Below are positions 1 through 63,723 of a stretch of 63,723 bases of DNA, in pieces. The position numbers and the translations under genes were made by a program. The notes beneath the pieces were generated by a model. The model made no database searches, was not told where the DNA came from, and saw nothing but the letters and a program-made list of their open reading frames with translations. The DNA is from a virus (lineage: Duplodnaviria > Caudoviricetes): IMG/VR virus record IMGVR_UViG_3300037481_000553, positions 1 to 63,723 of that record; one strand, 5' to 3'. The stretch's first letter is position 1, and each line of letters opens with the position of its first letter.

Positions 1-127
1 TCGTCATCGGTGAAGACCGTCGTGCCTTGCGTCTGGTTGACCGTAGCCCATTTCGTCGCGCCCGTGGCCTTCTCGTCTTCGGTCAACGTTTCGATATGTG
101 CCCAGCGCACCTGATACGGCTGCGCGG
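1..127. repeat. Terminal overlap identical to 63597-63723 (circular contig, unit length 63596 bp)
   Basis: First 127 nt match the last 127 nt exactly; the portal reading frame continues across the junction. Confidence 0.97.
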
Positions 128-1274
128 TAGCGGGGAGATAGTTGTACGCGATGAGCCGATCGACGAGCGGGCGGATCATGTACTCTTCGGCGTACCCCGT
201 CTGCCGTCCGTTGACTTGATCCTTCCAGTTGTCGCGATCTTGCGAGGACGCGAGTTCCCCCATCTCAGAGCCAGTGAGGATCCGCTTCGGGATGCCCTTC
301 GAACCAGCAATCTGCGTGAGAATCGCATCGGCCGGGTTCGAGAAGTTCGCCGTGTCGGAGCCGAGCGGCTGCACGTCGACTTTCCTCGTCTGGAGGATGC
401 GACGCATCTGATGCTGATACTCCTCGGCTTGGTCTTTCAGCGCGGTCTTCTCGTCGGGGGTGAGCGCGGCGTCCTTGTCCACCATCAAGTGCAGGCCTTG
501 ATTCGCGCGCAACCAGAACGCTTCAGCACCACCGCCCGTCACCTTGTCCAAGTCATCCAGCAGGTTCCACACGTTCTCCAGTGTGGGGATGCCGTAGACC
601 TCGTTGTCCAAGCACCCCTCGGCGATGTGGATAATGCGCGACCAGTGGACCGGCTTCTGCATCTCGGGGGACGAGATGTCCAAACGTCGTAGCTGGTACG
701 ACGTGGGGAGACCGAAACGCGGCGACGCGGTGTCTTGCTCGAACGTCTGGATGGTCGCATCCACGTAGTTCGCTCCGCTCGTTCCTCCCTGGCTCAGACC
801 CGGCCCACCACCACCCGTGAAAGGGGTCAAGAAGAGGAGCGCGTCCGGCTTCCCCGTCCCCTTCGGCAGTTCCTGATCGTACGGGCCGGCTGCGCCGATG
901 AGGAGAACGCTGTAGTTCGACAACCCCGCAAGGATGTCCGCGCGCTTCAGCACTTCCCAGACCTTCATCCGCGTCACGAGCGCGAGGAACGCCGCTTCGA
1001 ACGCGGTCTCGGTCTTCGGATCCTCGTCTTCGATCACCTCGGGTCCCCCACGCCAAGTCGCTTTCGGGAGTGCTTCGACAATGCGCTTCGCGATGCCTCC
1101 CCGCAAATACCGATCGCGATACTCCTTGTTCGTGATGATGCGGTTGTACCCGAGCACCTCGTAGAGATCGCGCTTGCCTCCGAACGTGATGCCCGCTTGC
1201 CGCATGAACTGCATGCGCTCGATCAGCACCGAAGTCGCCGCGCGCAAGGCGTACGTGTCGGCAGATTCTACCAT
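1..1274 (-). CDS. Portal protein, DUF1073-type, N-terminal part (continues at 63596..62939; ~643 aa total)
   Basis: Manual translation from ATG 1274, overlapping the TerL stop: MVESADTY...RDLYEVLGY...YLRGGIAKRIVEALPKATWRG...RFGLP...VHWSRIIH...YGIPTLENVWNLLDDLDKVTGGGAEAFW. In frame with ORF 62939..63706. Absent from the ORF track because it runs off the window end. Confidence 0.9.
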   Translation of the reverse strand, partial: MVESADTYALRAATSVLIERMQFMRQAGITFGGKRDLYEVLGYNRIITNKEYRDRYLRGGIAKRIVEALPKATWRGGPEVIEDEDPKTETAFEAAFLALVTRMKVWEVLKRADILAGLSNYSVLLIGAAGPYDQELPKGTGKPDALLFLTPFTGGGGPGLSQGGTSGANYVDATIQTFEQDTASPRFGLPTSYQLRRLDISSPEMQKPVHWSRIIHIAEGCLDNEVYGIPTLENVWNLLDDLDKVTGGGAEAFWLRANQGLHLMVDKDAALTPDEKTALKDQAEEYQHQMRRILQTRKVDVQPLGSDTANFSNPADAILTQIAGSKGIPKRILTGSEMGELASSQDRDNWKDQVNGRQTGYAEEYMIRPLVDRLIAYNYLPATAQPYQVRWAHIETLTEDEKATGATKWATVNQTQGTTVFTDD

Positions 1275-2776
1275 GTGAAGTACTCCTCTTGCGGCTCCGG
1301 CTCCAGCAACACGGCGTTGAAGGCGCATGACGACGCATCGACCCGGTCATCATGCTTGCCAGTGGGGAAGTCGCACAGTTCGCGGATGTACGCGTCGTTC
1401 CAGGGACCACGCACCAAGAAGACGTTACCACCTTCCACTTGTGCGCGCAACGGCTTACTCCGCGTGACCTTATCTCCGCTGATCTCGACGCCTTTGTAAT
1501 CGTACCCTTTGAGCAGCTTCAAGCGCGCGGCCACGACCATCTTGCCCGACGCGCCTCCTTCTTTCTCTTCGCGCTGCCCGCACGCGACGCCATCGGCGTG
1601 CGCGGTGTGCTTCATCAACGCCTCCACGCCGGCCGGCGAGAGTTGATCGCACACCACATCTTCGACGAAGAATTGGTCCTTGTGTTCGCAGATGCGGACG
1701 CCCGCGGTGAAGTCGCCTCCACCTTCGGTCGCCGCGGTATCCCACCCTCGCGCGCGACGCGCGACCTTGGGAGCCGCATCCACAAACTGAAACCACTCGC
1801 GCTTGAACAACCCTCCGCCTTCGGGAGCTGGCGATTGCTGGAGTTGTCCCGCGCTCCCGTACGGACCCAAATCGAGTTCCAGCTGACGCACGATCGCTGG
1901 GGTGAAGAGCGCCGGCCAGAGCAACTCACCTGCGTTGGTGCGGTGATCGAGGGGATCAGGCGTCCAGGTGGGGTCGTTGGCGCGTACGGTTTCGTAGCGC
2001 ATCGGCCAGCACACGTGGTACCATCCGCCACGAGCGAGGAGATGGCCGGCGAGATCGTCTTCGTGCAGACGTTGCATGACGACGATAATCGCCGTATCGC
2101 GGGTCACGCCGCGCGTCGAGATCGTGCCGTCGAACCATTCGTTCGCCGTGCCACGCTCCTGCGCGCTCCGTGCTTGTTCCGCGGTGAGCGGATCGTCGAT
2201 GATGATGCGGTCCGGATGTTCGCCGGTGCCCGGCCCACCCACGGAGGACGCAATGCGCCATCCGCCCGCGTGGTTCTTGAAGAGCGTCTTCTGGTTCTGG
2301 TCGTCGACGAGCGTCACCCCGAAGTACTGCTGATACCACGCCGACTGGATGATCGCGCGCACTTTCAAATTGTCGCGCACGGTGAGATGTCCGGAGTACG
2401 AGGCGGTCAGGTACCGCAACTCCGGTGCCGTCGCCCACTCCCACGCCGGCCAGATCACCGAAATCAGCAACGACTTCATCGTGCCGGGTGGCACGTTCAC
2501 GAGCAGACGTTTGATCTCCCCGCGCGAGACCTGTTCCAGCAGCGTGCAGAGTTCATCGATATGCCAATTCGGGACGAAGGCCTTGATGGGTTCGACGATC
2601 GGCCAGACATGTTCGAGAAACACGCGGAGCGAGCGCTGGCATAAGGCGGCATGCTGAGCGTCGGCGTCGTTCGTATTCGTATTCGGAGGGAGAAACGGCT
2701 GCATCCGCTGCAACATGCGGTCGACGACGCGCGTGTACGCGTCGGCCGGCGGTGGAGCGGTCGCTACGTGCGGCAT
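1268..2776 (-). CDS. terL: Terminase large subunit
   Basis: NVPPGTMKS Walker A, IIIDDP Walker B, MQRLHEDD motif, C-terminal nuclease RGWDTA...FPTGKHDDRVDA. Confidence 0.95.
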   Translation of the reverse strand: MPHVATAPPPADAYTRVVDRMLQRMQPFLPPNTNTNDADAQHAALCQRSLRVFLEHVWPIVEPIKAFVPNWHIDELCTLLEQVSRGEIKRLLVNVPPGTMKSLLISVIWPAWEWATAPELRYLTASYSGHLTVRDNLKVRAIIQSAWYQQYFGVTLVDDQNQKTLFKNHAGGWRIASSVGGPGTGEHPDRIIIDDPLTAEQARSAQERGTANEWFDGTISTRGVTRDTAIIVVMQRLHEDDLAGHLLARGGWYHVCWPMRYETVRANDPTWTPDPLDHRTNAGELLWPALFTPAIVRQLELDLGPYGSAGQLQQSPAPEGGGLFKREWFQFVDAAPKVARRARGWDTAATEGGGDFTAGVRICEHKDQFFVEDVVCDQLSPAGVEALMKHTAHADGVACGQREEKEGGASGKMVVAARLKLLKGYDYKGVEISGDKVTRSKPLRAQVEGGNVFLVRGPWNDAYIRELCDFPTGKHDDRVDASSCAFNAVLLEPEPQEEYFTW

Positions 2777-9703: not shown

Positions 9704-9719
9704 GCGACCACCAGGGCGA
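9701..9719 (+). repeat. 19-bp direct repeat starting at a stop codon (second copy 12679-12697)
   Basis: taggcgaccaccagggcga identical at both places, each beginning with the TAG of the upstream gene. Confidence 0.8.
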
Positions 9720-11699: not shown

Positions 11700-11701
11700 T
11701 C

Positions 11702-11977: not shown

Positions 11978-12069
11978 CCGTCCGGGTACCCCTCGAATCG
12001 TTGTTTGGCATGTCTGCTGCATATCGCAGCGTCCGTTCGTCAACCACGTTCAGTTCAGGAGACACGACC

Positions 12070-12681
<612 letters not shown>

Positions 12682-12693
12682 GCGACCACCAGG

Positions 12694-12741
12694 GCGACGG
12701 ACGCGGGGGGGGGGGTCCCCCAGCCTCCCCCCGTCCGTCGC
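12694..12741 (+). terminator. GC-rich hairpin after the H1-like gene (no U-tract)
   Basis: gcgacggacg...cgtccgtcgc stem extended by G and C runs. Confidence 0.4.
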
Positions 12742-12765
12742 GCCTCGTTCCAGGAGCCGCTGAAC

Positions 12766-12975
12766 ATGCGTATCGTGACCGTGACATTTCGCGTGACACC
12801 CGGCCAGGTCGACACCCTGGCACGCGCGCTGAGTCTCGACCACTACGAAGTCGGCACGGTCGTTCTGGATAAGTTTATCCGGGACGCCGTGCTGACCGCG
12901 TACGGACAGCTCGAACGCACCGCACCCGGCCGGGCGCAGGTCATGACGATCACACGAAAACGACGTCGCGCGTAG
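12766..12975 (+). CDS. Hypothetical small protein
   Basis: AGGAG RBS. Confidence 0.55.
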   Translation: MRIVTVTFRVTPGQVDTLARALSLDHYEVGTVVLDKFIRDAVLTAYGQLERTAPGRAQVMTITRKRRRA

Positions 12976-12988
12976 CGGAGGACACGAC

Positions 12989-13210
12989 ATGATTGGTACC
13001 GTTCGCATTGACGATAACAGCCGCTCCCGCGGCTTCTGCTTCATCAGAGGCGCAGACGGCTTGGACTATTTCACTCACTGGAGCGAACTGAGAGGAGGAC
13101 TCAATATCGACACCGTGCTGCGCGACCAGCGTGTGGTCTTCGTGTCGACGACCGGCGTGAAAGGCCTGAAGGCGAACGAAGTCTTCCCGATCACGGGGAA
13201 CGAGGCCTAG
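12989..13210 (+). CDS. Cold-shock domain protein
   Basis: RNP1-like RGFCFI, RNP2-like YFTHWS, C-terminal KGLKANEV. Confidence 0.8.
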   Translation: MIGTVRIDDNSRSRGFCFIRGADGLDYFTHWSELRGGLNIDTVLRDQRVVFVSTTGVKGLKANEVFPITGNEA

Positions 13211-33277: not shown

Positions 33278-36200
33278 TAGTCCACCACCACGTCGTCCGC
33301 TTCGGCACCGTCAAAGAACACCTTGATGCCCTTTGAGAATCCCGTGCCGGTCAATTCCAGATAGTTCGGGTACAAGATGCTTGGCTTGACCGAGTAGATC
33401 TGTGGGAGAACAGGCACATGAGTCACGACTTTCGGTTCTGGTTTCGTCAGTGCCATCAACAGATCAACCAGATCCATGCGCATCGACGACGCGGTCACCG
33501 TATACCGAGGTGTGAGCTGGTCGGACTCGTCGTGGATCTGATCGATCGTCACGTCCTGGATGATAAAGTCGCCAACGCACGGAGGCGAGGTCATGTTGAC
33601 GTGCACCGTTTTGCCGGCCACCGTCTTCTTGTCGCGCGTCGCGTATCGGATGGTGATGATGGGCCACGCGTACATCTCCGCTTCGGCGAGCGCCCGCGCT
33701 TGCATTTGCTCGTTCGTCACCAGGGAGTTGTCGACGATGGTGTATTCGTAGATCCCGTCGGTGTCCGGTTCCACCGTCATCATGTACGCTTGTGACTCCG
33801 CGTCATCGTACTGGAAGAAGCGACTGAGCGCCGATCCCGCGGCCACGGTGAACTCCGGGCAGTCGAGGATGACGTCTCGGCCCACAACCAAATCGGGCAC
33901 AACAGAACGACCTGATGGGAGCGCGGGGTAGACCCCTTTGCAATTCCACGTGGTTACCTTCAGCGACTTCGCATCGGTCATCCGCACGACACCGCCCGTT
34001 GACGGGAGGAATGACCCATCGGCCAACTGCAAGTAATGTGCGTCAAAGTCGGTGCCCGTCTGCGGCTGGCTCCAGCGCGCCTTCGGGTCTGGGAGACTGC
34101 CCGGAGGCGGACCCGTGCGCGGCGTCGTGAGGGTCTTGCCTTTGGTCGGATTACCATCCGGACAGTCGACCGCAACTGTGGTCGATGCGCCGACGATGAA
34201 GATGCGATTGCGCAGCTGCGACACGTCGCGCGTCACCGTGAACGGCTGACTACCTGAATCCGCGTGCAACAGGTCGGGATTCGTGTCGACGAGATCACCC
34301 ACCGCGTCCAGATTCTCCAGGTCCACGACGACGGGTGGGGTGATTTGAAGATAGGGATAGTTCCCGATGCCGATGGTCGGGACCGGCCACGTCGTCTCGA
34401 GCGTCTGTGTCGTGTTACCAGGCACCACGAGCAATCCAGCCATGATGCTGGCTGGCGTCCAATTCGGCTCCGCGTAGAGCGTGGCTTCGGTGCCGACGAC
34501 CGCACCGATACTCATGAACACCAACCGCGCGAGCACGTCCAGCGAACCAACCGTTGGACCTGGTGTGATGCCCGTGAACGAGAACCCCGAGATCGACAGG
34601 TCTGAATTCGACGCGGTGCCGACGCTCGTGGTCGCCGGCGAAGACCACGAGTACGTACCATCTCGGTAGAGATACGCGGTCCGGAAATTCACCCACGCGC
34701 GGCCGATCCCGTTGCTGGAGAGCACAGCCGCAACGGTCGGAGCCACGAGAGGAGCGGGGTACGGCCCGGCGAATGCGACATACGGGAGCGGATTCGCGGT
34801 AGCGATCGGCACGGCCAGCGCATCGCCGGATCCCGCTTGACCGAAGAGCGTCGTGAACTCCGTGGTCGTATTGTCATTGACCTGGCAGAACTTGTTCGCG
34901 TGTGCAAGCGATGCGCCCGTGTCACCCAACCACGAGTAGTAGATGCGACGCGCGGTGCAGGCGATCACACCAGCGTCAGAGCCAAGAATCAAGTGCCCCC
35001 ACGGAATCGTCCCTTCGCCAAACCAGCTACAGTCGGGATCTGCGGTATTCGCTGAAACGACAATCGCATCACCAGCGACACCCGGAACCAGCGCTTTGCA
35101 TAGCCGCGTCTCGAGATCCCACGACCAGAGGAACGCATCTGGATTCGCTGTCGTCGAATCAGCGTAGTCCACACCAGGCACACCGACCACGGTGTCGCGC
35201 TGCGTGGCGAACATCAACTTGTCAAGTGTCTCGTTGCCATTCGCGCCGATCTTCACATGGCCCGGGACGTCGGTTAAGATGTCCTGGAACACGTAGGTGA
35301 TGCTGCCGATGGTAACGGTATCGCCGTCCTTGAAATTCGTCCCGGAGTCCGGTGTGCCACCACCCTTCTGTAGAAAACTGTACGACGCGGTCGCCGCGAA
35401 CGGACGGTCTGTCCCGAGCGGTACGTTCGTGAAGTAGAACTGACCGTTGCCATCACCCTGAACTACATCTGCGCACGACTGGAGTGCAGACTCCGCGCCA
35501 TCGGCCCAGACGAACGTGTGGCGGAACAGGTAGTAGCCGGCTGGATACGTGAAGCCGGGATAGGTCTGCACAGCCGCGACCGTCATGTACGCGGTCAGCG
35601 GTTGCGGTACCGAGGGAGTGGGCGACGGGGTCGTCAGCGGCGTCGCCGGCTTCTTCACCGCCGACGTTGACGTGAACACGTGCACATCTTTGACGTAGTC
35701 TACCTTCCACTTCGCGCGAGCGTGCGCGCAGACCTCGCTCAAGCACGTCGTGAAATCCTGGGTCCCGTCGAACGACACCGTGACCGGATCCAGTCCCAGC
35801 TGCACATGCGACGTGGTGAACCCAGGCGCGAACCGCGCGACCAGATCGATCACGACTTCGCTGGCGCTCACGTTGTTGTATGTGGCGACCGGCCGCTTGC
35901 GGTTCAACTTCGGAGTGTAATCGACCGCGTCTATCTGGTACGCGAGTTGATCGGTCTGCCCTTCGTAGGCTTCGCTGACGGTCTGGGCGAAGCCGGCGAA
36001 CAGGAGCCGGTTACTGTCCTGACCGTCCACGATCTGCACGACCTCGCCTTCAGTCGGGAGGTTGCTCTGCCCATCAATGACAAACGTTGCCGTGTTGGGC
36101 GAATTGCCCAGCGTCTCGCGGATGCTGACGCCCGGCGAACGTCTGATGTCTCCGCCTCGCCCGAGTGTCGTCCACTTGAAACCGTTGCGGACCGTCGTGA

Positions 36201-52013: not shown

Positions 52014-54899
52014 TCATGCCACCTGTGCTACGTGAAGATAGGTCCGATACGCGCCGCCGTAGACCGCAATGGTGAAGCCGACTTTCTTGTACCCTCTGAG
52101 TTCGAGGTAGTCTCCGACAGCCAGCGTGAGAATCGTTGTCAAGTTCGACGGAGCCACCGTTTGACCGCCAGCGATGTAGGTCCACGCATCAGCGCACTCG
52201 GCCACGAGCGAGCCGTTCTTGTACACCCGCGTGTAGTACTCGCCACCGATAGCCTGCTGACCTCCCCACCCGATACCCGCTGACACCACGTACACACCTG
52301 CGTACCCAGCGGGAATCGTGACGCGCTTCGGATTCACTCCGTTATCGTGCATCCCATACGCATCCCACTCCTCCGCGTCGAACTCCACCTGCAACTCGGT
52401 GCTGTCGTTCGCCACCGTGTCAGACGAGAGATAGACCGCGCACGTCGCCCGTGTCAGTGGCGACGAGGACCACTCCATCTTGCGCGAGATGCCCGTGTTC
52501 GCCGTCAGGACTTGACCCGAGGCGGTCGGAGCCGGAACCACGCTCATGCCAAGCGACACGTCGCCCGCGAACAGTTCACCGTCGGCAATCGCGCTACGCC
52601 CCGTCCCGCCGTGCAGGACGGCGAGCGGGACTTCCGGCATGCCCTGTGATGCTGCGGCTGCATTCGCACCAGCCGCGATGTAGACTGTCCCATCGTAATA
52701 GAACGCAATAAGAGACAACGCATCGATGGCCGTGTCGATGACACCAGCGATCCCGCCGCTCCACACGACTGATGCTGGCCATGCGACCGTACGACCTCCC
52801 GATGCGTCTTGCTTGAACCGCAGTACGTATCGCGCACCGGCCTTCGGGTTGACGAATGTCAATTCGACGTCGTCTGTGAGGCGAAGAATCTGCTCGTTCC
52901 CATCCTGCCAGTCGATCTCTTTCGCAGCACCCGAATCGCCCGCGTCGTACTGGACGATGTACGCGTGCCCGGCGATCTTGAGTGCGCTGCCGGCTTCGAC
53001 CGCCACACCTGCACCGAGCGCATCCCACTGCCCGCCGTCTCGAAGCGCCGTCAGGTGGTAATACTCGTCGGGTGCTCCACCTTGCAGGCCAGCGAGGTGA
53101 TTGTGGTCCGCGAGGATCGACGCCACCGCCGTCGTGACGATCGACACGTCAAGATGCTTGGGCGTTGCGGCGAGTCGGCACTTACCCTTGGTGTTATAGG
53201 CGTTGCTCGTTGCCCATGTGAACTGCCACGCCAGTACGAACTCAGCGATGCCCAATCCAGCCCACGAGAAATCGGATGCCACTTCCGCTTGCGCAGTCGC
53301 CAGCGAGGAGAATTCTGCGCGTCCGTGGACGATCAGGAACCCCGCTTCTCCCGAGAGGTTCGTGTAGAGCAAGTACGTATTGTAGTACTTGTTCGCTTGT
53401 CCCTGCGTCATCGTCCCACTGGCGTCGTACTGGATGTACCCTGCATTCGTCCAGCGGTAGGGCATCGCCAGCTTTTCCCACAGCCATGTGGACGCGGCCG
53501 AGCGGTAGAAGATCCAGTAGTTCGCCGTCGCACCGTCGCCATCGGCCAGCAGAGCGACCGTGTGCGAGAGGTCTTCGTCCAGCAGCAGACACACGTCGAG
53601 GCTGAAGGTGTTCTCGTCGTCAACCGGACTCACGGGTGCGACGGAGTACTCGTCTGGTGTGCCACCGTAGATGTGCTTCGTGCCTTCGGAAGTATGCTCG
53701 TAGTAGTGCATCTTCCGGTCGATGAGACAGGTGTGCCGCTCGTCGGCCATCCAGAACGTCGGCGTGTACGCGCCGTGGAAGATAATCCCAGCGACCGGAA
53801 CCTTGGTGTCGAGCAACGTCCACGCGGGTCCATCCACCAGCGTCCCGACTTCGCTGTCGATGTAGATGTAGTGCACTCCCTCGTCTGGTGGATTCGTGCC
53901 GGCGAGCAACACCGTCTTCGCGCCCGTGATGGTGCAGAGGACACCGTTGCGGAAGTAGCGCCAGGTCGCGCCCACCGAGCCGAGCGTGAAGCGGTAGGTG
54001 CCATCGCCCACGGCCGCACACGCGATGCTCGTCTCCGCATTGTCTACGAAGCCGTAGTGCTTGGTCAGCGCGAAGAACGGGTCGGTCTCAGCACCGCCCG
54101 CAGGGTCAGCCCACTCCGGGTCCGTCGCACCTTGCTTCAGGACCTGGTTTTCCACACCCGACGGGAGCAACTTCCAGAACAGCGTTGATTCTCCGCGGTA
54201 TAGCAGACCACCCTGCTCGCCCACACCAGGCACTTCAGTGTCGGTATGAGTCGCGGAGAGGAGTTCGTGCGGACCACTGGATTCGCCAGACGGCAGGTCG
54301 TCCCACGTGGGTTCTTCTGCGCCCATCGTAAGCACCTGACCTGTGCTGCCTTTCGCGAGGCGGTCCCACGTGGGTGTGATGCCCTTGCCGACGATCAAGT
54401 CGCCGCGCTGCACCGCGGCCGGCGTCGTGTCGGTATGCTCCGCTGAGAGGACGTCGTGCGGACCCGCTCCCCCTGAACCCGTCGCGCCCACCGACGCGAG
54501 CAGTTCCCAAAACGCCGGGTTCGCGGTGGACTGACCCGTTCCTGACGCGAGGCACACGAAGCTAGAGCCGTCGTCTTCGACCACGTCGTAGGGCACGTAA
54601 GCCACGCCTACGTCGTAGGGACCGAGCCACGTGAATCCCTGCCCGGTGGGTCCGGCAGCTCCTGCTGCCCCGGGCGCGCCTGGTGTACCTGGTGTGCCTG
54701 GTGTCCCTGGATCACCTTGGGCACCTTGGACACCTTGTGCGCCAGTCAATCCTCTCGGCCCGGCCGGACCCGCAGGTCCTTGCACGGCGAGGTTCTGCAC
54801 CGTGATCTTCTTGTTCACTCCCGAGGCAACGATCGGCAGCACGTCGGTGCCGGCCGGCGTCACACATTCAGGGAGTGCGGAGATCTTGGTATCAGCCAT
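52014..54899 (-). CDS. Collagen-repeat fibre protein with C1q-like C-terminal domain
   Basis: MADTKISALP; (Gly-X-Y)n at ~aa 41-88; C-terminal FDAEEWD...RVTIP...GVYVV...LAVGDYLEL. Confidence 0.8.
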   Translation of the reverse strand: MADTKISALPECVTPAGTDVLPIVASGVNKKITVQNLAVQGPAGPAGPRGLTGAQGVQGAQGDPGTPGTPGTPGAPGAAGAAGPTGQGFTWLGPYDVGVAYVPYDVVEDDGSSFVCLASGTGQSTANPAFWELLASVGATGSGGAGPHDVLSAEHTDTTPAAVQRGDLIVGKGITPTWDRLAKGSTGQVLTMGAEEPTWDDLPSGESSGPHELLSATHTDTEVPGVGEQGGLLYRGESTLFWKLLPSGVENQVLKQGATDPEWADPAGGAETDPFFALTKHYGFVDNAETSIACAAVGDGTYRFTLGSVGATWRYFRNGVLCTITGAKTVLLAGTNPPDEGVHYIYIDSEVGTLVDGPAWTLLDTKVPVAGIIFHGAYTPTFWMADERHTCLIDRKMHYYEHTSEGTKHIYGGTPDEYSVAPVSPVDDENTFSLDVCLLLDEDLSHTVALLADGDGATANYWIFYRSAASTWLWEKLAMPYRWTNAGYIQYDASGTMTQGQANKYYNTYLLYTNLSGEAGFLIVHGRAEFSSLATAQAEVASDFSWAGLGIAEFVLAWQFTWATSNAYNTKGKCRLAATPKHLDVSIVTTAVASILADHNHLAGLQGGAPDEYYHLTALRDGGQWDALGAGVAVEAGSALKIAGHAYIVQYDAGDSGAAKEIDWQDGNEQILRLTDDVELTFVNPKAGARYVLRFKQDASGGRTVAWPASVVWSGGIAGVIDTAIDALSLIAFYYDGTVYIAAGANAAAASQGMPEVPLAVLHGGTGRSAIADGELFAGDVSLGMSVVPAPTASGQVLTANTGISRKMEWSSSPLTRATCAVYLSSDTVANDSTELQVEFDAEEWDAYGMHDNGVNPKRVTIPAGYAGVYVVSAGIGWGGQQAIGGEYYTRVYKNGSLVAECADAWTYIAGGQTVAPSNLTTILTLAVGDYLELRGYKKVGFTIAVYGGAYRTYLHVAQVA

Positions 54900-56066: not shown

Positions 56067-57113
56067 CTACGACTTCTGCCCGAGGTAGACGCCCGACTTG
56101 CCATCGTAGTCCGAGCGGAAGCGCGGGACCATGATGGCCATGACCAGCCAGTACAGCGTGAAGCCGTCCAGCGAGGTCCAGGGGATGACCGTCGGCGGCT
56201 GACCGTTGACGATCTCGACGACGTCGCTGGTCATCTGGACGATGACCATCTGCGTGCCGGTCGCCGCATGCGGCATCCGGTCCACGACCTGCACCTTCAG
56301 CGGTCGGCCACCGGCCTGGATCCGCTCGAGACGCTGGCGGATCGTGTCGCTGGTGTTGACCTTGAAGTCGCCTTCGATGACGTTCCCAGCTTCGGTGCTG
56401 AGATACAGGTTGTACGGGCCGTACTTGTTGTCGGCCTGGAGCGCGGTGATGCCCGCGAGGACATCGGTGACCATCGCCGGACCCGTGGTCCCGACGACGT
56501 TCGCCGCGGTCCAGTCGACCGTCAGCGAGCCGGTGTTCGCGTTCGGCGCGTTGAGCAGGCCGGGCGCGTCGTACCCACCGACGACGAGCGCCTGCCCGTC
56601 GAGCGTGGTCGCGCCGTTGATGCACGCGTCCTCGATGGACTCGTTCACCCGACGGGTGGCCTGCTTGATCAGGCTCGTGTCGAGCGGCGTGCCGACCCGC
56701 TGCGACATCTTCAGCGTGCGGATGCCGATGCTGAAGTCGTCGGTCGTGAGGTAGATCGGCAGCCGATGGATCTTGCGATCCGGGAGCTGGTTCTCCCCAC
56801 GCGCGCTGGGCGACATGGTGCGCTGCGCGGTGCCGACCTTGTTGATCTCTTCCCATTCCAGCTGCGTCACCGACAGCGGATCGGGCAGCGAGTAGGAGAG
56901 ACCCGCGGCCATGATGTCGGCTGCGAACTGGAGACGCTCCAGACCGACTTCCACGACCGCCTTGTCCACCATGACCTGCGCCTTGTCACTCAGCGGAGAC
57001 AGCGCGCGAAGGCCAGGGATCGAAAGCTCGCCCGACTGCTCCAGCGACCGGAGCAGTGCTCCGGCGATGGGCGACTTCGGGTTCGCTGCGGAGAAGCGCA
57101 TTCCGTCGAACAT
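56067..57113 (-). CDS. Major capsid protein (HK97 fold, Linocin-M18/encapsulin-like family)
   Basis: LPI...DFSI.IR.L, PLDT, GLLNAPN and YGPYNLY motifs; strongest codon bias; position. Confidence 0.88.
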   Translation of the reverse strand: MFDGMRFSAANPKSPIAGALLRSLEQSGELSIPGLRALSPLSDKAQVMVDKAVVEVGLERLQFAADIMAAGLSYSLPDPLSVTQLEWEEINKVGTAQRTMSPSARGENQLPDRKIHRLPIYLTTDDFSIGIRTLKMSQRVGTPLDTSLIKQATRRVNESIEDACINGATTLDGQALVVGGYDAPGLLNAPNANTGSLTVDWTAANVVGTTGPAMVTDVLAGITALQADNKYGPYNLYLSTEAGNVIEGDFKVNTSDTIRQRLERIQAGGRPLKVQVVDRMPHAATGTQMVIVQMTSDVVEIVNGQPPTVIPWTSLDGFTLYWLVMAIMVPRFRSDYDGKSGVYLGQKS

Positions 57114-57186: not shown

Positions 57187-57624
57187 CTAGACGACCTCGA
57201 CGCGGATGCGCGTCAGAGCGGTTGCCGTCTTGTTCTCCAACGCCTGGAAGAGCGCGATCCCGGCGTTGAACACCTTCAGGGTGCCGTCCCCTGCGGATTC
57301 CAGCTTGTTGCCGGCGACGATGGTCTGGCCGCTCGCGATGAACATCCAGAACTTCGCGCCGGGTGCGCCGATCTTGACCTCGACGAGGTCGTTCGCGGCG
57401 TAGTCGTCGTCGACGTCCTTGTTGAGCATCGACTGCTCGCACGCGACCGCGCGCACAGCCGCGAGGCTGGCGGCGTCGTGCGCCTTGACGCGGATGACCC
57501 CACCGTTGTTGAACAGCAGGACCAGGTGTCCAGGCGTGATGACCCCGGACGCCGCGTACGTGTTCTCTTCGGTCGCCGGGCCACCGAGGTGGATGGTACC
57601 CGGATCGAGCTGCGTGACTGCCAT
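57187..57624 (-). CDS. Head decoration / capsid cement protein
   Basis: ITPGHLV, I.AGNKLESAGDGTLK; sits between protease and capsid genes. Confidence 0.75.
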   Translation of the reverse strand: MAVTQLDPGTIHLGGPATEENTYAASGVITPGHLVLLFNNGGVIRVKAHDAASLAAVRAVACEQSMLNKDVDDDYAANDLVEVKIGAPGAKFWMFIASGQTIVAGNKLESAGDGTLKVFNAGIALFQALENKTATALTRIRVEVV

Positions 57625-57691: not shown

Positions 57692-59434
57692 CTAGTTGAC
57701 GGTTCCCTCGGCCTTCCGACGCGCCTCGAGAGCAGCCGCGTACGGATCCGGAGGGGTGGAGTAGACGTCCGCGGCTCCGGCGTCGCGCACGACACCGCGA
57801 CCGGAGAAGTCCGGCTTCGCGACCTTGACCACGTTCGCGAGACGCCCGAGCGCCTTGAGGTCCATGGCCTGGAGTTCGACTTCGGTGAACTCCTGCTGCG
57901 CGTCCTTGAGGGACGTGACGAGCGCGGTCTTCTCGGCCGCGTCGCTGGCCTTCTTGTCGGCCACGAGCTGACGGATGCTGTCGGGTGCGGTCTTGAGGTA
58001 CTCCTCTTCGGAGACCTCCGCAGCCGCGACCTTCGGCTCCGGTTCCTTCTTGGCGTCCGGCTCCGGCTTCTCTTCCGGCTTGACCTCGGCCACCTTGGGT
58101 GCCGGTGCCGTCACGAGGTCGACGATCGCCTGCTTCGGGTTGGCGGTCATCGCGACCCGCACCTTGTTGAACGCTTCGAGCGCGTCCAGTTCCTGGTCCG
58201 ACAAGGACTCCAGAATCGCCTTGTCCTTGACCACGTTGTGCTCGCACGCGATCAACGCGGCGATACGAGTGGACTTCTCCATGCCTGCTCCTCCTTCGGA
58301 GTGCGCGGCTGCGGCAGCATCGCCACATCCGCAGGGAGGTGCCGCTTCGGCACCTTTCAGTTTCTCGGCACACGCCGCACCGAGTTTGACCATGTGATCA
58401 TGAACCGTCTGGATCATCTCCTGATCTCTCGACGAGTTCCGCTTGCCGGCCAGGTCCTTCAACGTCTGGGCCATGGCCATGTAGGTCGGCGCGTCCTCGC
58501 GATTGCACTTGTACGCGAGCGACATGACCGCCGAGAGAGACCCGATCATCTCCATGCAGTACGACTGGAGCGATTCGAGCCGGGCCGATTCGAGTTCGTC
58601 GGCCGCGTCTTCGTCGTCGGGCATGGTCGGTTCGATCGCATCATCAGCGATCAAGTCGGCCAGCAGCGACTTCGCGGCGTCGTACGCGGGCGTCACCGCG
58701 TCGAGCAGTAACTGCATGGTGCTGTACTGCACGGTCTCCGCGGTGTCGCCATCGGCTGCAGCCTTCGGAGTGCCTCGCGCTCCGCGGAGCAGCGTTCTGA
58801 CGCGTTCACGCATCGTCATGGGTTTCGGGTCCTCCTTCTGCTGCGCTGCGGTACGGGGTGCACCGCATCCCATCTCGTTGGAGCACGCACCGAGCGTGCC
58901 TTCGGGAAGCATGGCCAGATGATCCGGCACGATGGTATGCCAGACCGCCTTGTACGCCTTGCCTCCATGCGTCCCTTCCTTCGCCTCGGCGCTGACGAAC
59001 GCGCCAACCGACACTTCGATCGGCTTGCCTTCCTCGAGACGCGCGATGACGCGTTGCGCATCACCCCCGAGTTCCGTGGCGCGAGCCTTGTCGAGCCAGG
59101 CGTCCATCTTCAGCATGCGACCTTCGGTGCGCGCGTTCGCGATGAAGCCGAATTGATGCGCCTCCAGCACGGTCGGGGAGTTCGCACTGATCTGGCGTGA
59201 GAGCGCATCGACCGGGTGCAAGGGGAGCACGGGCCGTCCGTTCCAGCCTTGCGGCGTCGCGTCAAGTTCGCTCGCCGGCACGAACTCCGGCGATGCCGCG
59301 TTGATCGCGTGAATGACGCCTTCTCGCAACGCGACCACGGGCACGACCATGTGCACGCGACCCATGAAATTGGCCGTCCGGAGTAGTGTGCCTTCCGCGG
59401 CGACCACCAGCCGTCGAATGGTTGGTTCAGACAT
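57692..59434 (-). CDS. Prohead protease-scaffold (DUF2213-like)
   Basis: WNGRPV...HP, IEVSVG, PDHLAMLP..GACS...GCG; helical scaffold-like C-terminus. Confidence 0.82.
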   Translation of the reverse strand: MSEPTIRRLVVAAEGTLLRTANFMGRVHMVVPVVALREGVIHAINAASPEFVPASELDATPQGWNGRPVLPLHPVDALSRQISANSPTVLEAHQFGFIANARTEGRMLKMDAWLDKARATELGGDAQRVIARLEEGKPIEVSVGAFVSAEAKEGTHGGKAYKAVWHTIVPDHLAMLPEGTLGACSNEMGCGAPRTAAQQKEDPKPMTMRERVRTLLRGARGTPKAAADGDTAETVQYSTMQLLLDAVTPAYDAAKSLLADLIADDAIEPTMPDDEDAADELESARLESLQSYCMEMIGSLSAVMSLAYKCNREDAPTYMAMAQTLKDLAGKRNSSRDQEMIQTVHDHMVKLGAACAEKLKGAEAAPPCGCGDAAAAAHSEGGAGMEKSTRIAALIACEHNVVKDKAILESLSDQELDALEAFNKVRVAMTANPKQAIVDLVTAPAPKVAEVKPEEKPEPDAKKEPEPKVAAAEVSEEEYLKTAPDSIRQLVADKKASDAAEKTALVTSLKDAQQEFTEVELQAMDLKALGRLANVVKVAKPDFSGRGVVRDAGAADVYSTPPDPYAAALEARRKAEGTVN

Positions 59435-59437: not shown

Positions 59438-61195
59438 TTACTCCACGCTCTCGACAGCCAGACCCAGCGTGCATCGGCAGTAGGGATGCAGTGGTGGATC
59501 GCCGTCGTCGAATTCCGTGTTCAGCGGGACGGTCGTGCCGTCCAGATCTTCGCAGTCGCTGCAGGCGTTGCCATCGGGGGTGTAGATCCACTCCTTCGAC
59601 TCGTCGCCCGTCAGCAGGCCTTGCTCGACCGCTTGGTTCCAGAGTTCTTTCTGCCCTTCGTTCGCGGCTTCCATCGTCTCGGTCTGCGCGATCATCTCCG
59701 CGCGGGATTCGGTCATCTCCGCAGCGCGCACACTGATCTCGTCATCGATGTCGGCTTGATCCAGACCCTGTTCTTCCAGCTTGTCTTGCAACGCCAGGAG
59801 TGCTTCGCCTTGACGCGCGTTCAGCCCCACCGTGTCGCGGAGCAGCTTCGCCGTCTGTGCGACGGTCCGCTCCTTCTCGATGCCATCCGCAATGATCGAC
59901 TGAATCATCGCCCGGCGTTCATCGAGCATCCCCGTGATCCACTCGCCCGCGTGCGCCCTGGCCCATCCGACCGCTTCGCTGTTGGTGACATCGAACTCCG
60001 GCTTCGCAATATCCATCACGACGCGCGGCTTCTTCAACCAGCGGAGCACGCCACCCAGGAAGGCCAGCGCGGTCTTGGGACGCGCGGGAGTTGGGTGCAT
60101 CCACAACCGTGCATGGACCCGTGCCGAGGCGTTGATCACGCGCTGTAACAGCGACGTCAGTTCCTTCTCGAGCCGCGTGGCATCTTTCTCCGCTGCGGCC
60201 AATGCCGACGTCTTGTCGGTAATCCCCTCGGTCGTCCAGATCTTCTGGAATGACTCCACGAAGAGCGGGCGCGCGGCATCGGCCACGCCATGCGCGGACG
60301 TCAGTGGTGCCGGGGAGCGCTTCTTCGCGGCTGCACGGAGTGTCGTCACGGACTTCTCCGCCGCTTTCTTGAACCCGACGGCCGCGCGGTTGTTGGTCTT
60401 CCACATGGACCCAGCCTTGTGCTGTGCCCAGATCTTGGTAAGGAACCGCACGCGCGATTCCTGCTGCGACGACGGAACCTTCTCCTTCGAGAGAATGTCG
60501 TGCTGCAGTTCATGATAAATGATCGTCGCCATGAAGCCGGGACCGTCGTCTTTCAGGGACTTCGCATCGACATAGAGATGTCCCTTCATGGTTCCGTAGC
60601 GTCCGCCCAGGTCCTTCACTTCGACGGTCTTCCCCCGCAAGGCATCCGCCGCTTTCTTATCGTCCAGGACGTGCGCGAGCGCTTCGTTCATGTCGGCTTG
60701 CTGCGCATCGGTGGCGATGACCTTGACTTTCGCATCTTTCACCATCTGCGCATTCACCGCGGGGTTCGTCCCTTTCGTCTCGCGGTACGTCGCTGGTTTC
60801 GACTCCTGAGATGACCCACCTTCTCCAGATGGTGCACTGCCTCCGACCTCGCCGGGCACTCCCGCATGTCCGAAGTTCCCGGAGCCGGGTCCTCCCAGCA
60901 TGCGCGCTTCAAGCGTCGTTGGGATCTCGCTGTCGCCCACGCCATCTGAGAGAATGAACACGTCCTCCGCGCGACGTGCCGCGGCGAGCAGTGCGATGCG
61001 AGAAGATTCCACCGGGCCGTCCGCAACGAGTGCCTCCAGCGCAGCGATGACCGCTTCGATGTCGGTCGTGTGCCCAGCCGCGAAGAACGCCGCGAGCACT
61101 GGAGACGCCACAGCCGCAGCCGTCAGCGACGCCAATCCACCGATGGACGGCCCGTCTGCCAAGTAGCCGGTGGAGTCGTACAGCGCGTAGCTCAT
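59438..61195 (-). CDS. MuF/gp7-like head morphogenesis protein with N-terminal extra domains, including an HExxH metallopeptidase-like domain
   Basis: C-terminal RAEMIAQTE..A.N.G, KEW, C..C, PPLHPYCRC; internal GGPGSGNFGH tag then IIYHELQH...E. Confidence 0.85.
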   Translation of the reverse strand: MSYALYDSTGYLADGPSIGGLASLTAAAVASPVLAAFFAAGHTTDIEAVIAALEALVADGPVESSRIALLAAARRAEDVFILSDGVGDSEIPTTLEARMLGGPGSGNFGHAGVPGEVGGSAPSGEGGSSQESKPATYRETKGTNPAVNAQMVKDAKVKVIATDAQQADMNEALAHVLDDKKAADALRGKTVEVKDLGGRYGTMKGHLYVDAKSLKDDGPGFMATIIYHELQHDILSKEKVPSSQQESRVRFLTKIWAQHKAGSMWKTNNRAAVGFKKAAEKSVTTLRAAAKKRSPAPLTSAHGVADAARPLFVESFQKIWTTEGITDKTSALAAAEKDATRLEKELTSLLQRVINASARVHARLWMHPTPARPKTALAFLGGVLRWLKKPRVVMDIAKPEFDVTNSEAVGWARAHAGEWITGMLDERRAMIQSIIADGIEKERTVAQTAKLLRDTVGLNARQGEALLALQDKLEEQGLDQADIDDEISVRAAEMTESRAEMIAQTETMEAANEGQKELWNQAVEQGLLTGDESKEWIYTPDGNACSDCEDLDGTTVPLNTEFDDGDPPLHPYCRCTLGLAVESVE

Positions 61196-63349
61196 TTGCG
61201 AATCAACCCAGAAAGTTCACTGCGCGAGACCGCTTTCATCGCGGAGACCCGGAACGACCCCACGCCGCGTCGATAGTAGTACTGCGTCTGACTCGTGCGC
61301 ATGTCCACGACGACCGTATGCATGGCCGCATGATTGCGGCGTCCCCAAGCAATCTTGCGTTCGCGCGCATCCGGGTGCATGGTGATCTTGTCGTTGGTGT
61401 TATCGATCAACGTCTTGACCTCGACCCCATGCATGTGGCCGGGTGTCTTGACGACCGTATCGAACGGGTCGTTATCATCCGTGCGCGTCCCGCCGATGAC
61501 TTCGGCAATCTCGTGTTCCGATTTGTCCGCGAGTGCCTGCTTCTCCTTGGTAGAAGGCTTATGGGTCGCGAGCGCGCGGGCGGTCCGCGTCGCGGGCGTG
61601 CCGATCTTCTCGCTCGTTCCTCCGGCTCCGCCCGATCCCCCGACCTCACCGGGTCGCCCGGCGTGATCGAAATTCCCCGAGCCTTTGCCTCCAAGCGTCG
61701 TCGGCTTGTCTTCGTCAAGGACCCAAGGCACGTAGTACACGAGACTTTCCTCGCTGCCTCGGAACGTCTTCGGATCCACGGGACGCCATATCATCGGCCC
61801 GTTGTCTTTCTCGACCACACCCACATGCACCGCGACGATCCACTCCGGCTTGATGTTGCCTTTGAACTGACGCGCGGAACTCGTCGTATCCGAATGCGTA
61901 TCCATCGTCAAGCGTCCCTTCTCACTCGCGGGAATCTTGACTTCGATGACCGCGGGATGCATCGCACCCGCTTTCAGGCCTTCATCGAGCGCTTTGCCTG
62001 CCTCATCACGAGGCCAGGCTGCAGCTTCCGCATACCGTTGTGCCTCGGCTTTGTTGGCAGTCGTGTAGACATGGCCTTTTGCCGATACCGCACCTCCGGT
62101 CATCGCGGCTTTATCGGCCGTGAAAATAGCATTCGCACGATCAGCCGTGATCCCATCTCTCAAGATCGATTCGACATTCGCGCGAGTGGTGCCGTGGAGT
62201 TGCGTCCCCTTCCCTTGTGATACGATCTTCTCCGTGCCTGGACCGCTGCCTCCGATCTCGCCAGGCCGACCACCATGTCCGAAGTTCCCGGAGCCGGGTC
62301 CTCCGAGCGTCTTCGGTCCACCAACCAGACGTGCTTTCACCTTGTAACCGTAGCGCTCACCAATCTGCACTTCTTCGGTATGCACAATCTTGACGCGCGT
62401 GCCCACTCGACCGATGGCTTCCTTCTCGCCGTATCGATTCAGGCTCGAGATGTCCTTGAAGGTCGGTGACGATTCATCAACGACCATCTCCATCAGGACG
62501 AACGTGTCATCGCCGTGCGATTGCTTCTCCGCAAAAGTCCGCGCTTCCTTTGCGGATGCACTGAACGAGGTGCTCGCGTCGAACTCGATCTCTTTCCCAT
62601 CCACGATGGCGGTCAACTGCTCTTCTGAAAGACCCCCGTACCCACGGTGCCAGGTCCCGGCTTTCGCATCGGGACTCGCGTCGAGTGCCTCGTTCCACGC
62701 ACGCACCATCGGGGTATCGGCTCCGCTGCGTTCGGCTTCCTTAATGGCCTTCTGTCCACCCGGCGTCACCCACCGATCGGCCGCGTCCTTCGCAGACACC
62801 GAATCGCCGCTCCCTCCGACTTCTCCCGGCCTGCCTCCATGACCGAAGTTGCCACTGCCCGGTCCTCCGGCCGTACGCAGGAAGGCACGCCAAAGAAGGC
62901 GAGCGGCGACCGGAGGCGAGAGGGTCTGGAGCGCCATGCTACTTGCCGATGTCCTGCTTGTCGCGCGGTCGCACGTGCACTTCGTGGACCCACTTCTTGT
63001 AGAAATTGTTCGAGCGTTGCGGACCGCTGACCGTATCGCTCACGATCTCGTACTCAGGCAGCTTCGCACTCCAGGTCGAATTGCCGTACTCCTTCGAGAA
63101 CTTGTCGGATGCAGCCATGGCCTGGTCTTCGGTATCGTACTCGGCCGCGTATGCCTGTGAATCAGGCCACTGTGGAGCACCATGTCCTTGCGGATCGTGC
63201 GGTGGGGTTCGTGTGGTCAGCTTCTCGTAGCCCTTCGGCATCTTCGGTGCACTCTTCGGCTGCGCTCGACCGCCACCACTCCCCTCACCAGAACCCCCCA
63301 CTTCTCCCGGCCGACCCCCATGTCCGAAATTCCCCGAGCCGGGTCCGCC
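60836..63349 (-). repeat. Five coding copies of the peptide GG[PK]GSGNF[GD]H[GA]G[RV]PGE[VI]GGS
   Basis: Copies at 60836-60895, 61633-61692, 62245-62304, 62809-62868 and 63290-63349; synonymous divergence at DNA level. Confidence 0.95.
61192..62937 (-). CDS. Polyvalent head-associated protein: R-S-E ADP-ribosyltransferase, Tpt1/H-type ART-fold domain and PD-(D/E)XK nuclease, each preceded by the repeat tag
   Basis: Domain 1 WHRG...STSFS...EKE; domain 2 LHGT...ILRDGI...VY...Y...IKPEWI; domain 3 SE...PFD...VEVKT. Confidence 0.8.
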   Translation of the reverse strand: MALQTLSPPVAARLLWRAFLRTAGGPGSGNFGHGGRPGEVGGSGDSVSAKDAADRWVTPGGQKAIKEAERSGADTPMVRAWNEALDASPDAKAGTWHRGYGGLSEEQLTAIVDGKEIEFDASTSFSASAKEARTFAEKQSHGDDTFVLMEMVVDESSPTFKDISSLNRYGEKEAIGRVGTRVKIVHTEEVQIGERYGYKVKARLVGGPKTLGGPGSGNFGHGGRPGEIGGSGPGTEKIVSQGKGTQLHGTTRANVESILRDGITADRANAIFTADKAAMTGGAVSAKGHVYTTANKAEAQRYAEAAAWPRDEAGKALDEGLKAGAMHPAVIEVKIPASEKGRLTMDTHSDTTSSARQFKGNIKPEWIVAVHVGVVEKDNGPMIWRPVDPKTFRGSEESLVYYVPWVLDEDKPTTLGGKGSGNFDHAGRPGEVGGSGGAGGTSEKIGTPATRTARALATHKPSTKEKQALADKSEHEIAEVIGGTRTDDNDPFDTVVKTPGHMHGVEVKTLIDNTNDKITMHPDARERKIAWGRRNHAAMHTVVVDMRTSQTQYYYRRGVGSFRVSAMKAVSRSELSGLIRK

Positions 63350-63723
63350 TGCATGTCGGATGCCGATGATGTCGTCGATCGTATCGGTATCGTTCTCGAC
63401 GATGGCGCGCTCCAACACCTGGAAGAGATCCCGCGGCGTCGCGCCAGCCAGGATGATCGGCTTCTCGTCTCCGCCCGCACCCGGAGGGAGCGCGCCAAAG
63501 GGAGCGGGCGGTGGTTCCGGCTTCGGCTTGGCGGCTTCTGCGGCCGCTTTCTGCTCGGGCGTCAGCGGCTCCATACCGTACCACTTGTCGCGGATCTCGT
63601 CATCGGTGAAGACCGTCGTGCCTTGCGTCTGGTTGACCGTAGCCCATTTCGTCGCGCCCGTGGCCTTCTCGTCTTCGGTCAACGTTTCGATATGTGCCCA
63701 GCGCACCTGATACGGCTGCGCGG
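62939..63723 (-). CDS. Portal protein C-terminal part with tagged extension domain
   Basis: Portal end FTDDEIR...EPL, Pro-rich linker, then RHA-GGPGSGNFGH tag and a ~115-aa unknown domain. Confidence 0.85.
   Translation of the reverse strand, partial: AQPYQVRWAHIETLTEDEKATGATKWATVNQTQGTTVFTDDEIRDKWYGMEPLTPEQKAAAEAAKPKPEPPPAPFGALPPGAGGDEKPIILAGATPRDLFQVLERAIVENDTDTIDDIIGIRHAGGPGSGNFGHGGRPGEVGGSGEGSGGGRAQPKSAPKMPKGYEKLTTRTPPHDPQGHGAPQWPDSQAYAAEYDTEDQAMAASDKFSKEYGNSTWSAKLPEYEIVSDTVSGPQRSNNFYKKWVHEVHVRPRDKQDIGK

Follow-up and report, generated by a model that had tools for sequence, protein, structure and literature searches.

A near-invariant 20-residue peptide precedes variable cargo domains in phage head proteins and may mark sites of prohead-protease cleavage

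In this study, we examined a 20-residue peptide, here called the tag, that recurs in the head genes of the phage recorded as IMG/VR entry IMGVR_UViG_3300037481_000553, whose whole sequence of 63,723 nucleotides was analysed and is referred to as the window. As the preliminary description had reported, the pattern GG[PK]GSGNF[GD]H[GA]G[RV]PGE[VI]GGS occurs in five in-frame copies in three open reading frames (ORFs), and these, like all other window genes and coding sites given below, lie on the minus strand. Tag P (GGPGSGNFGHGGRPGEVGGS; 63290..63349) is found in the C-terminal part of the portal gene and follows the junction IRHA/GG, the slash marking the boundary before the first tag residues. 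Three copies, B1 (62809..62868; junction LRTA/GG), B2 (62245..62304; PKTL/GG) and B3 (61633..61692; PTTL/GG), lie in a polyvalent cargo ORF of 581 residues (61192..62937), which consists of a 23-residue leader followed by three cassettes of tag and cargo. The fifth, tag M (GGPGSGNFGHAGVPGEVGGS; 60836..60895; ARML/GG), belongs to a MuF-family protein of 585 residues (59438..61195; PHROG head morphogenesis). The portal gene itself had been described as truncated. Because its terminal 127 bases are identical (a direct repeat, 1-127 and 63597-63723), we read the contig as a circularly permuted whole phage genome of 63.7 kb, and the portal gene instead spans the contig ends, joined by the repeat: its N-terminal part (3..1328; PF06381 Phage_portal_3, E 4.1e-28) continues into 62939..63721, which holds the portal end, the junction, tag P and a 116-residue appendage.

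The preliminary description further held that each copy opens a different domain, and this holds: tag P is followed by a portal appendage without family, B1 by a likely ADP-ribosyltransferase (ART), B2 by a probable PARP-like ART, B3 by a nuclease of the PD-(D/E)xK fold, and tag M by a zincin peptidase joined to MuF, with the two ART assignments resting on indirect evidence. The portal-linked cargo (62942..63289) comprises a Gly/Ser linker and about 110 residues, with no match in Pfam, PHROG or NCBIfam. In the 581-residue ORF, the leader (62869..62937) is modelled by AlphaFold2 (AF2) as a helix at residues 8-22 and ends in LRTA/GG. Cargo 1 (residues 44-211; 62305..62808) is a likely ART of the R-S-E type, judged by Atlas feature similarity to a phage cluster of which 65% is PF03496 (ADPrib_exo_Tox) (score 0.95; 184 shared features); its HRG, STS and E-x-E pattern, read from the sequence, is presumably the ART motif. 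Its AF2 model is poor, and a PDB sequence search returned a chance-level row only (E 0.37). Cargo 2 (residues 232-415; 61693..62244) appears to be an ART-fold domain of the PARP/Tpt1-like H-Y-E clade, since BLASTP aligns it with residues 580-691 of protein P0028 (E 2e-14), overlapping the Pfam PARP match of that protein at 579-659, and the Atlas gives a lead in the same direction (score 0.91). Neither cargo has a direct Pfam match to ART families even at E 10, and the ORF as a whole matched nothing in the family libraries searched. Cargo 3 (residues 436-581; 61195..61632) is modelled with a predicted local distance difference test (pLDDT) score above 90 as a PD-(D/E)xK nuclease fold, for which Foldseek returns archaeal Hjc resolvases (1gef_A, TMt 0.68; 2wcw_D, 0.64) and SPARDA nucleases. 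The ORF thus carries at least two effector-type domains (ART-like, PARP-like, PD-(D/E)xK).

The MuF protein is laid out as a 100-residue N-domain, the ARML/GG junction, tag M, a zincin HExxH domain, the sequence LRAA/A and a C-terminal MuF domain (PF04233 at residues 463-577). Its zincin domain has the motif HELQH and a weak SprT match at residues 194-246. The LRAA/A between the zincin and MuF domains (residues 286-290; window region 60326-60340) resembles the junctions and is not followed by a tag; its sequence suggests that a further cleavage would free the peptidase from MuF.

Over terminase and portal, a close relative, L095, is about 73% identical to the window in nucleotide sequence. Where the window has three cassettes, L095 has two, and the cargo behind its portal tag is shorter and different; DNA similarity resumes at the stretch of leader and tag and at the nuclease cassette, and the cassette differences start and stop at or near tags. 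Its junctions IRHA, VRVA and PRTA agree with the window motif described below. The relative also bears on the reading frame of the middle gene. The public gene call (P0001, 535 residues) starts about 46 residues late (window 62800-62937, minus strand) and omits the leader and the first tag, whereas both are kept in L095, which backs the 581-residue reading. Automatic annotation can, as P0001 illustrates, hide N-terminal tags.

At the DNA level, a degenerate back-translation of the tag core, allowing up to two mismatches, matches the window at the five copies only, with 0.00 matches expected from 100 dinucleotide shuffles. Core identity between copies is 36-52 of 60 bases, and 30-base flanks agree at 3-15 positions. 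As had been proposed, the copies are conserved as protein and differ synonymously as DNA: among 200 codon pairs, 75 are identical, 103 synonymous and 22 non-synonymous, and the synonymous differences include switches between TCN and AGY serine codons. Because the codons diverge while the peptide stays fixed, selection acts on the tag peptide. This bears on the suggestion that the tag serves as a recombination handle for shuffling cassettes. A role mainly in DNA recombination would fit the homology breaks at or near tags between the window and L095, where cassette number and portal cargo differ, as well as the longest in-register exact run between two window tags (31 nt), and the related idea of a collagen-like Gly-X-Y strand that associates with its own kind would fit the five Gly-X-Y triplets that can be read in the tag core. 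The handle cannot explain conservation of a peptide whose DNA diverges synonymously, a stable triple helix would need more than five triplets, and five genomes (G022, G025, G026, G033 and G021) show a single tag each, even by profile. We therefore give either variant very little credence.

The tag is widespread. A profile of 40 columns, built from 145 tags and searched against 1.84 billion representative proteins, matches 6,856 representatives at E <= 1e-3; of these, 1,111 reach <= 1e-10 and 214 reach <= 1e-30, and a single protein can contain as many as 10 matched stretches. When the 581-residue ORF served as query in a word-seeded search, 426 of the 8,000 proteins scored had E <= 1e-3, and 115 of the 120 matches listed bear one to four tags. 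Scanning IMG/VR with a DNA pattern yielded at least 113 stretches with 168 tag-bearing ORFs and 225 tags, and the exact pattern is present in 29 stretches among 185,579 prokaryote species (one genome per species), nearly all of them metagenome-assembled genomes labelled Clostridia, Lachnospiraceae, Dehalococcoidia, Omnitrophota, Elusimicrobiales, Terriglobus, Eggerthellaceae, Sulfuricaulis and others. Guanine-cytosine (GC) content among tag-bearing complete contigs ranges from 37% to 65%. For cultured phages, tblastn with the 581-residue ORF and with a 44-residue tag stretch found no match in 50,697 GenBank phage records, a search in which the low-complexity filter may mask the tag, so that it speaks only weakly for absence; judged by their portals, Halorubrum phage Hardycor1 and Brevundimonas phage MaInes are nearest among cultured phages, and the stretches examined of these two likewise contain no tag. 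The consensus reads [K/D/L/N/...]-GG-[P/K/A]-GSGNFGH-x-GRPG-[E/Q/K]-[V/R/I]-GGS followed by 5-8 Gly/Ser-rich residues, in which several positions were preset by the search pattern while the first G and last S of the tag, like the linker, were left free. Degenerate forms also occur: contig G030 (L120-L123; 45921-54041, minus strand) encodes a 2,707-residue polyprotein with eight tag-like stretches, some of them degenerate (e.g. GSGHHGHVGVPGKRGGS), and three zincin HExxH domains, and two genes upstream of it bear further divergent tags.

Tag-bearing proteins are varied and include portals, MuF and prohead-protease fusions, polyproteins and small stand-alone proteins. Pfam matches among 81 tag ORFs from IMG/VR comprise Phage_portal_3 (14), ADPrib_exo_Tox (7), MuF (5), NUDIX (5), DUF2213 (4), Topoisomerase IB (3) and Zeta toxin (2), with one each of Peptidase_S78, Peptidase_S78_2, Ntox50, 2'-5' RNA ligase, GNAT, PARP and others. 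The 26 largest multi-tag proteins match ART-PolyVal (7), 2'-5' RNA ligase (6), ADPrib_exo_Tox (5), Zeta toxin, DRAT, PI3/PI4-kinase-like, ParB_N and DUF3990 (3 each), MuF (2), and Tad3 (a Thoeris inhibitor), Acb1 (anti-CBASS), Fic, HD and others (1 each). By these Pfam matches, the tagged cargo is effector-like. Among P0130-P0155, one multi-tag polyprotein contains intein/Hint domains, and in others PI3/PI4-kinase-like and DUF3990 domains form the tagged cargo. Clustering of 1,113 cargo segments by single linkage produced one cluster of 615 and was unusable; requiring 60% mutual coverage split the segments into 668 clusters, of which 524 were singletons, a result that we read only as a sign of diversity.

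Within these proteins, the tag is never terminal: among 137 ORFs whose 3' end is complete, no final tag comes closer than 76 residues to the C-terminus. The first tag is very often 9-60 residues from the protein start, and many stand-alone proteins consist of a short leader (down to 8 residues), the tag, a linker and one domain. On contig G037 (L115, about 7100-14970), at least six consecutive small genes each encode a similar leader of about 20 residues ending in L-x-E, the tag and a different domain; the array adjoins a gene for a protease of the T4 gp21 family and resembles a T4-style array of internal proteins with the tag added. The preliminary description had placed the tag in the head module, and this stood for the portal, MuF and prohead-protease fusions, all of them proteins of the head interior, while some tagged genes lie far from head genes: on contig G021, the tagged gene follows baseplate genes, and the complete contig G032 has one tagged gene directly after that for the large terminase (TerL) and another outside the head genes, to which we return below. 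Among 37 long contigs, MuF was found in 27, Phage_portal_3 in 20, DUF2213 in 19, S78 in two, and S78_2 and S77 in one each, so that no partner family is universal. A local iterative search of the 67 window ORFs against 13 complete contigs, a method too insensitive for this purpose, recovered only TerL and MuF, in six genomes each.

These arrangements bear on whether the tag is an uncleaved packaging address that binds a conserved procapsid site or the DNA, with the residues upstream reflecting ancestry. Such an address would account for the tag at the N-terminus of small stand-alone proteins, where an inter-domain cleavage site would be pointless; a single shared receptor would fit the extreme conservation, and known targeting peptides are disordered, as the tag is predicted to be. 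Portal, MuF and protease fusions, in contrast, need no address and yet bear perfect tags, several addresses in one polypeptide would be redundant, and no family common to all tag-bearing genomes, as a receptor, emerges from the counts just given. An address also leaves unexplained why the upstream residues match gp21 specificity, as shown next. We regard it as unlikely, although it is the strongest of the four competing explanations.

What tracks the protease is the variable three to four residues upstream of the tag, rather than the invariant 20-mer. Within 24 loci with at least three tags, the residue before GG has a mean entropy of 0.23 bit, against 2.71 bit overall. Among the 37 long contigs, D precedes GG in all 14 with a strong DUF2213 match, L or A in four of five with a weak, window-like DUF2213 match (the split follows our own E-value bands), and K in all three S78 or S78_2 contigs, the three from which the link of the K class to S78 is drawn. 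Each class, named after this residue (P1), has its own upstream context among 956 unique tags: L-R-[TA]-A for A, with R at P3 in 87%; L-[RK]-[AT]-L for L; L-V-E-R for R; and L-E-K-V-L-N for N. On contig G037, the [LI]-x-E/GG context is close to the cleavage site of T4 gp21, which is L/I-X-E (PMC9026906, section 2.5), and Peptidase_S77 was therefore searched for. It was found on one of the 37 contigs, namely G037, the only one with [LI]-x-E/GG, where it adjoins the tagged gene array. A fresh IMG/VR scan for the E class brought the contigs with true E-class tags to 23 in all; S77 (PF03420) was found on 7 of these and on none of 36 others (Fisher p = 7e-4), and was not found on two short E-class fragments (66% and 9% complete). 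Of 52 E-class tags, 39 have L or I at P3; in G037, P3 is Leu, Ile or Phe. From the E-class count, 11 loci were excluded: nine of an unrelated family, one chance match and one without an in-frame tag. That family, FPLDVEGGPGTGNQGHY(V/I)MF (L175-L177, L180, L181, L187, L189, L191 and L197), was rejected as a look-alike that partly mimics the tag start.

A role for the tag without any protease is hard to reconcile with this pattern. A self-cleaving peptide acting through invariant N, S and H, or a nascent peptide acting on the ribosome (2A-like skipping or arrest), would have a universal reader, in keeping with invariance across 37%-65% GC and several head-protease families, and Ser, Asn, His and Arg, all invariant in the tag, are residues that could react. 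On this view, however, upstream residues that are specific to a genome and matched to its protease would have no role, known self-cleaving modules need a fold that a disordered stretch of 20 residues does not offer, skipping on the ribosome would cancel the benefit of fusing cargo to the portal, and we know of no bacterial precedent for such an action. A protease-free tag is thus highly improbable.

In the window, the protease in question is a 580-residue protein (57692..59434) made of a DUF2213 prohead protease (PF09979, E 2.2e-6; PHROG head maturation protease) and a scaffold-like C-terminal part. The five junction contexts, IRHA, LRTA, PKTL, PTTL and ARML, take the general form Φ-R/K-x-[AL]/GG. 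Including the following small residue, the motif Φ-[RK]-x-[AL]-small occurs eight times in six head proteins (2,686 residues), three of these being the tag contexts after sight of which the motif was defined, compared with 1.8 +/- 1.3 in shuffles (0 of 1,000 reach 8) and two copies in the other 61 ORFs (19,248 residues). The capsid gene was outside the ORF set of this count and adds one copy, LRAL/S at residues 35-39. Four copies lie in the protease-scaffold protein, three of them in the scaffold part (starting at residues 223, 467 and 526). The fourth, PRTA/A (residues 193-197; 58844..58858), is a predicted self-cleavage site at the end of the confident protease fold, and its alignment column reads LRAA/GG followed by a tag in the orthologue L018. 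Four further DUF2213 orthologues have a tag within about 45 residues after the protease domain, giving five of the ten loci rows listed. The capsid copy, L35-R-A-L38/S39 (56997..57011), is a predicted maturation site in the N-arm, where LR[AT][LA] stands at one column in five capsid proteins of the lineage (window, L043, L006, L053 and L018) and is not found in the two most distant rows, L004 and L019.

Structure prediction places this protease with a known class. The AF2 model of the L018 DUF2213 domain, which is 46% identical to that of the window, has a pLDDT of about 90 and its best PDB match in T4 gp21 (5jbl; E 1.6e-3, TMt 0.61), followed by herpesvirus proteases; by this model, the window DUF2213 protein is gp21-like in fold class. 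An alignment of 11 protease sequences shows invariant H73, S83, S142, H172 and S185, which may include the catalytic Ser and His residues. All three tags of the 581-residue ORF, B1 included, and the post-protease tag of L018 have pLDDT below 50, with flanking domains above 90; the low-confidence stretches that hold the tags of the ORF are 20-58, 187-249, and 393-429 with 431-444. Because AlphaFold models the tags as disordered, we take the tag to be a linear motif read in trans. Complex prediction of protease domain and tag peptide scored 0.05 and 0.09 against a mark of 0.32, and speaks neither for nor against binding.

A zincin metallopeptidase, such as the HExxH domain of the window MuF protein, might equally be supposed to cleave at the tag, all the more as peptidase processing of polyvalent proteins was predicted by Iyer et al. 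2017 (PMC5512222, main text). Among 168 tag-bearing ORFs, 22 contain HExxH, where chance would give about 3.9, and in 89 of 429 tagged proteins the motif stands 60-260 residues after a tag; in the window, the one zincin domain stands immediately behind tag M. Using a local profile that included the window copy, zincin domains were detected in just 5 of 14 complete or near-complete tag-bearing genomes, and for this reason we rejected the zincin as a universal or general reader. Six of the 14 genomes had a single tag by regular expression, and the tagged ORF of none of these has HExxH. A zincin reader also leaves unexplained why the residue before GG follows the serine-protease family, and we consider this explanation improbable.

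We favour, with somewhat more belief than doubt, a mechanism in which the prohead protease cuts just before the tag, which then stays as the N-terminus of the cargo, and the cargo is released inside the head. A cassette would consist of three to four residues matched to the protease, the near-invariant GGxGSGNFGHxGRPGxxGGS, a Gly/Ser linker and a variable enzyme domain, and would hang behind a protein that enters the procapsid: the C-terminus of the portal, MuF, the protease-scaffold, another cassette or a short leader helix. At head maturation, a protease of the gp21/assemblin fold, proposed in this phage to be the DUF2213 protein at 57692..59434, would cut immediately before the first Gly of the tag. 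Cleavage is predicted to free the small portal appendage, two ART-like enzymes, a nuclease and a zincin peptidase-MuF protein, which would presumably be ejected with the DNA and act on the host. If the head protease cuts before GG, this would be why the tag is found after portals, MuF domains, proteases, cassettes and leaders alike. The basis of this reading is computational, and from it we infer that cleavage takes place and exactly where, as well as packaging and ejection. Among the options raised in the preliminary description, processing by the prohead protease is the best-supported mechanism, as the upstream residues track the protease family and the motif recurs in head proteins, and the mature N-terminus GGPGSG... 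predicted there is exactly the one to which the data point. The broader idea of the tag as an address or processing signal fared less evenly: the tag is a modular boundary before variable cargo, but it is the upstream residues, not the 20-mer, that follow the protease.

Several observations weigh against this mechanism. One contig with a weak DUF2213 match has H or N before GG instead of L or A. S77 is present on just 7 of the 23 E-class contigs and is missing from four that are 93-100% complete, and 15 of the 37 long contigs, among them all five of the N class and four of seven of the K class, yielded no protease family. The contigs are partly related by descent and many are fragments, so that the residue-protease counts overstate independence, and the after-sight definition of Φ-[RK]-x-[AL] tempers its enrichment in the head module. 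On the complete contig G032, a tagged ART (L125, 3149-3871, minus strand) lies among genes for Gam-like, RecE-like, replication-initiator and polymerase proteins. The AF2 model of L018, a natural fusion of protease and tag, left junction and tag undocked in cis, and the presumed natural sites of the protease in capsid and scaffold have no tag. Finally, a lineage-specific protease leaves the invariance of the 20-mer across lineages unexplained.

For the 20-mer itself, our best guess is that it is a handle kept on the mature cargo, for holding it in the head or for its exit. Alternatively, it may serve this protease fold as a common prime-side docking element. A more far-reaching proposal, which we hold to be possible and rather doubtful, is that the 20-mer acts throughout phages as a 'plug standard' for effectors delivered by the virion: it would remain at the new N-terminus once the head protease of the given phage has cut, and would be read by one conserved machine, for instance the exit channel of portal or tail, the DNA in the head or a host factor of universal occurrence. 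Were this true, cargo would be held in the head and exit with the DNA, cassettes would work across unrelated portals and proteases, and the tag would flag thousands of so far unrecognised anti-defence enzymes that are injected.

Several known systems help to put the tag into context. In architecture, the tagged proteins are comparable to phage polyvalent proteins, and in their proposed working to the T4 system of capsid targeting sequence (CTS) and gp21. Polyvalent proteins, as presented in the main text of Iyer, Burroughs, Anand, de Souza, Aravind 2017 (PMC5512222), hold several effector-type domains per polypeptide (ART, zincin peptidase, nuclease, ParB, zeta kinase, 2H and GNAT), their genes adjoin portal and MuF genes, and packaging, injection and proteolytic processing were predicted for them. 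The multi-effector ORF of the window likewise stands among packaging and head genes. While zincin peptidases are put forward in that text as the processors, the junctions here follow the serine prohead protease family, and zincin domains were not found in 9 of the 14 complete tag-bearing genomes.

In T4, according to the sections of PMC9026906 on internal proteins, the CTS is an N-terminal leader that ends in L/I-X-E, cleavage by gp21 frees the cargo, which includes an ART (Alt) and is then ejected, and foreign proteins can be loaded by means of the CTS. E-class tags carry the gp21 site, and seven of the 23 such contigs have an S77 gp21-family gene. The window protease is PF09979 (DUF2213) and not of the gp21 family (Peptidase_S77), and its putative site, Φ-R/K-x-A/L, differs from that of T4; the window leader ends in LRTA/GG, a candidate cleavage site whose motif is enriched in the scaffold, at the protease boundary and in the capsid N-arm. 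Whereas the T4 CTS is described in that source as an N-terminal propeptide of about 10 residues that is removed, the 20-mer is common to several protease families and is proposed to stay on the cargo, and its cassettes also form chains within polyproteins and fusions with portal, MuF and protease. The same source describes phiKZ-like giant phages in which a diverged gp21 homologue cuts many head-internal proteins after a short motif ending in Glu, before their ejection; these inner-body proteins are lineage-specific and are not cassettes common to unrelated phages, and no shared tag after the site is described in those sections.

Fusions of MuF to variable toxin or enzyme domains in head-gene neighbourhoods are known from temperate phages as MuF polymorphic toxins (Jamet et al. 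2017, PMC5576092), a family defined in the abstract of PMC12226406 by an N-terminal MuF and a C-terminal toxin. The window MuF domain, in contrast, is C-terminal (residues 463-577 of 585), behind the tag and the peptidase, and most tagged cargo is not fused to MuF. The tag also invites comparison with the cargo-loading peptides of encapsulins and the encapsulation peptides of microcompartments, which are short, disordered or helical, joined to cargo by a flexible linker and serve as modular, transferable addresses to an HK97-fold or protein shell. Those peptides bind the shell without a link to a protease site, and their sequences are unrelated to the tag.

Around the tagged genes, the head operon runs in the order TerL (1268..2776; PF17289; upstream of the portal), portal, cargo ORF, MuF, protease-scaffold, head decoration protein (57187..57624; phrog_766) and major capsid protein (56067..57113; PF19774 / PF09950), with stop and start codons overlapping or nearly abutting. 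Elsewhere in the window, a tail-fibre-like protein of 961 residues (52014-54899, minus strand) has an N-terminal collagen-like Gly-X-Y run (GPAGPAGPRGLTGAQGVQGAQGDPGTPGTPG...), and GC content dips to 0.569 at 32001-34000, compared with about 0.62 elsewhere.

In conclusion, head-packaged effectors and their processing are already known from T4 and predicted for polyvalent proteins; the new elements here are the shared tag, its pairing with lineage-specific protease sites, and its use as a flag for head-delivered effectors. Our literature search found no paper with any of six literal spellings of the tag, and none with 'GRPG' together with bacteriophage and portal; the main texts of PMC5512222 and PMC5576092, as distinct from their supplements, mention no glycine-rich or linker motif. 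In the texts searched, a near-invariant peptide before cargo across differing portals and proteases is thus undescribed. If the proposed mechanism is true, the tag would provide a sequence flag for injected phage effectors in 6,856 protein clusters, including Tad3, Acb1 and many domains without a family, and the specificity of uncharacterised prohead proteases could be read from the residues before it. It would also pose the question of which reader attends to a disordered 20-residue motif that hardly changes across phages, and proteins of choice might be loaded into phage heads by means of such a portable tag.

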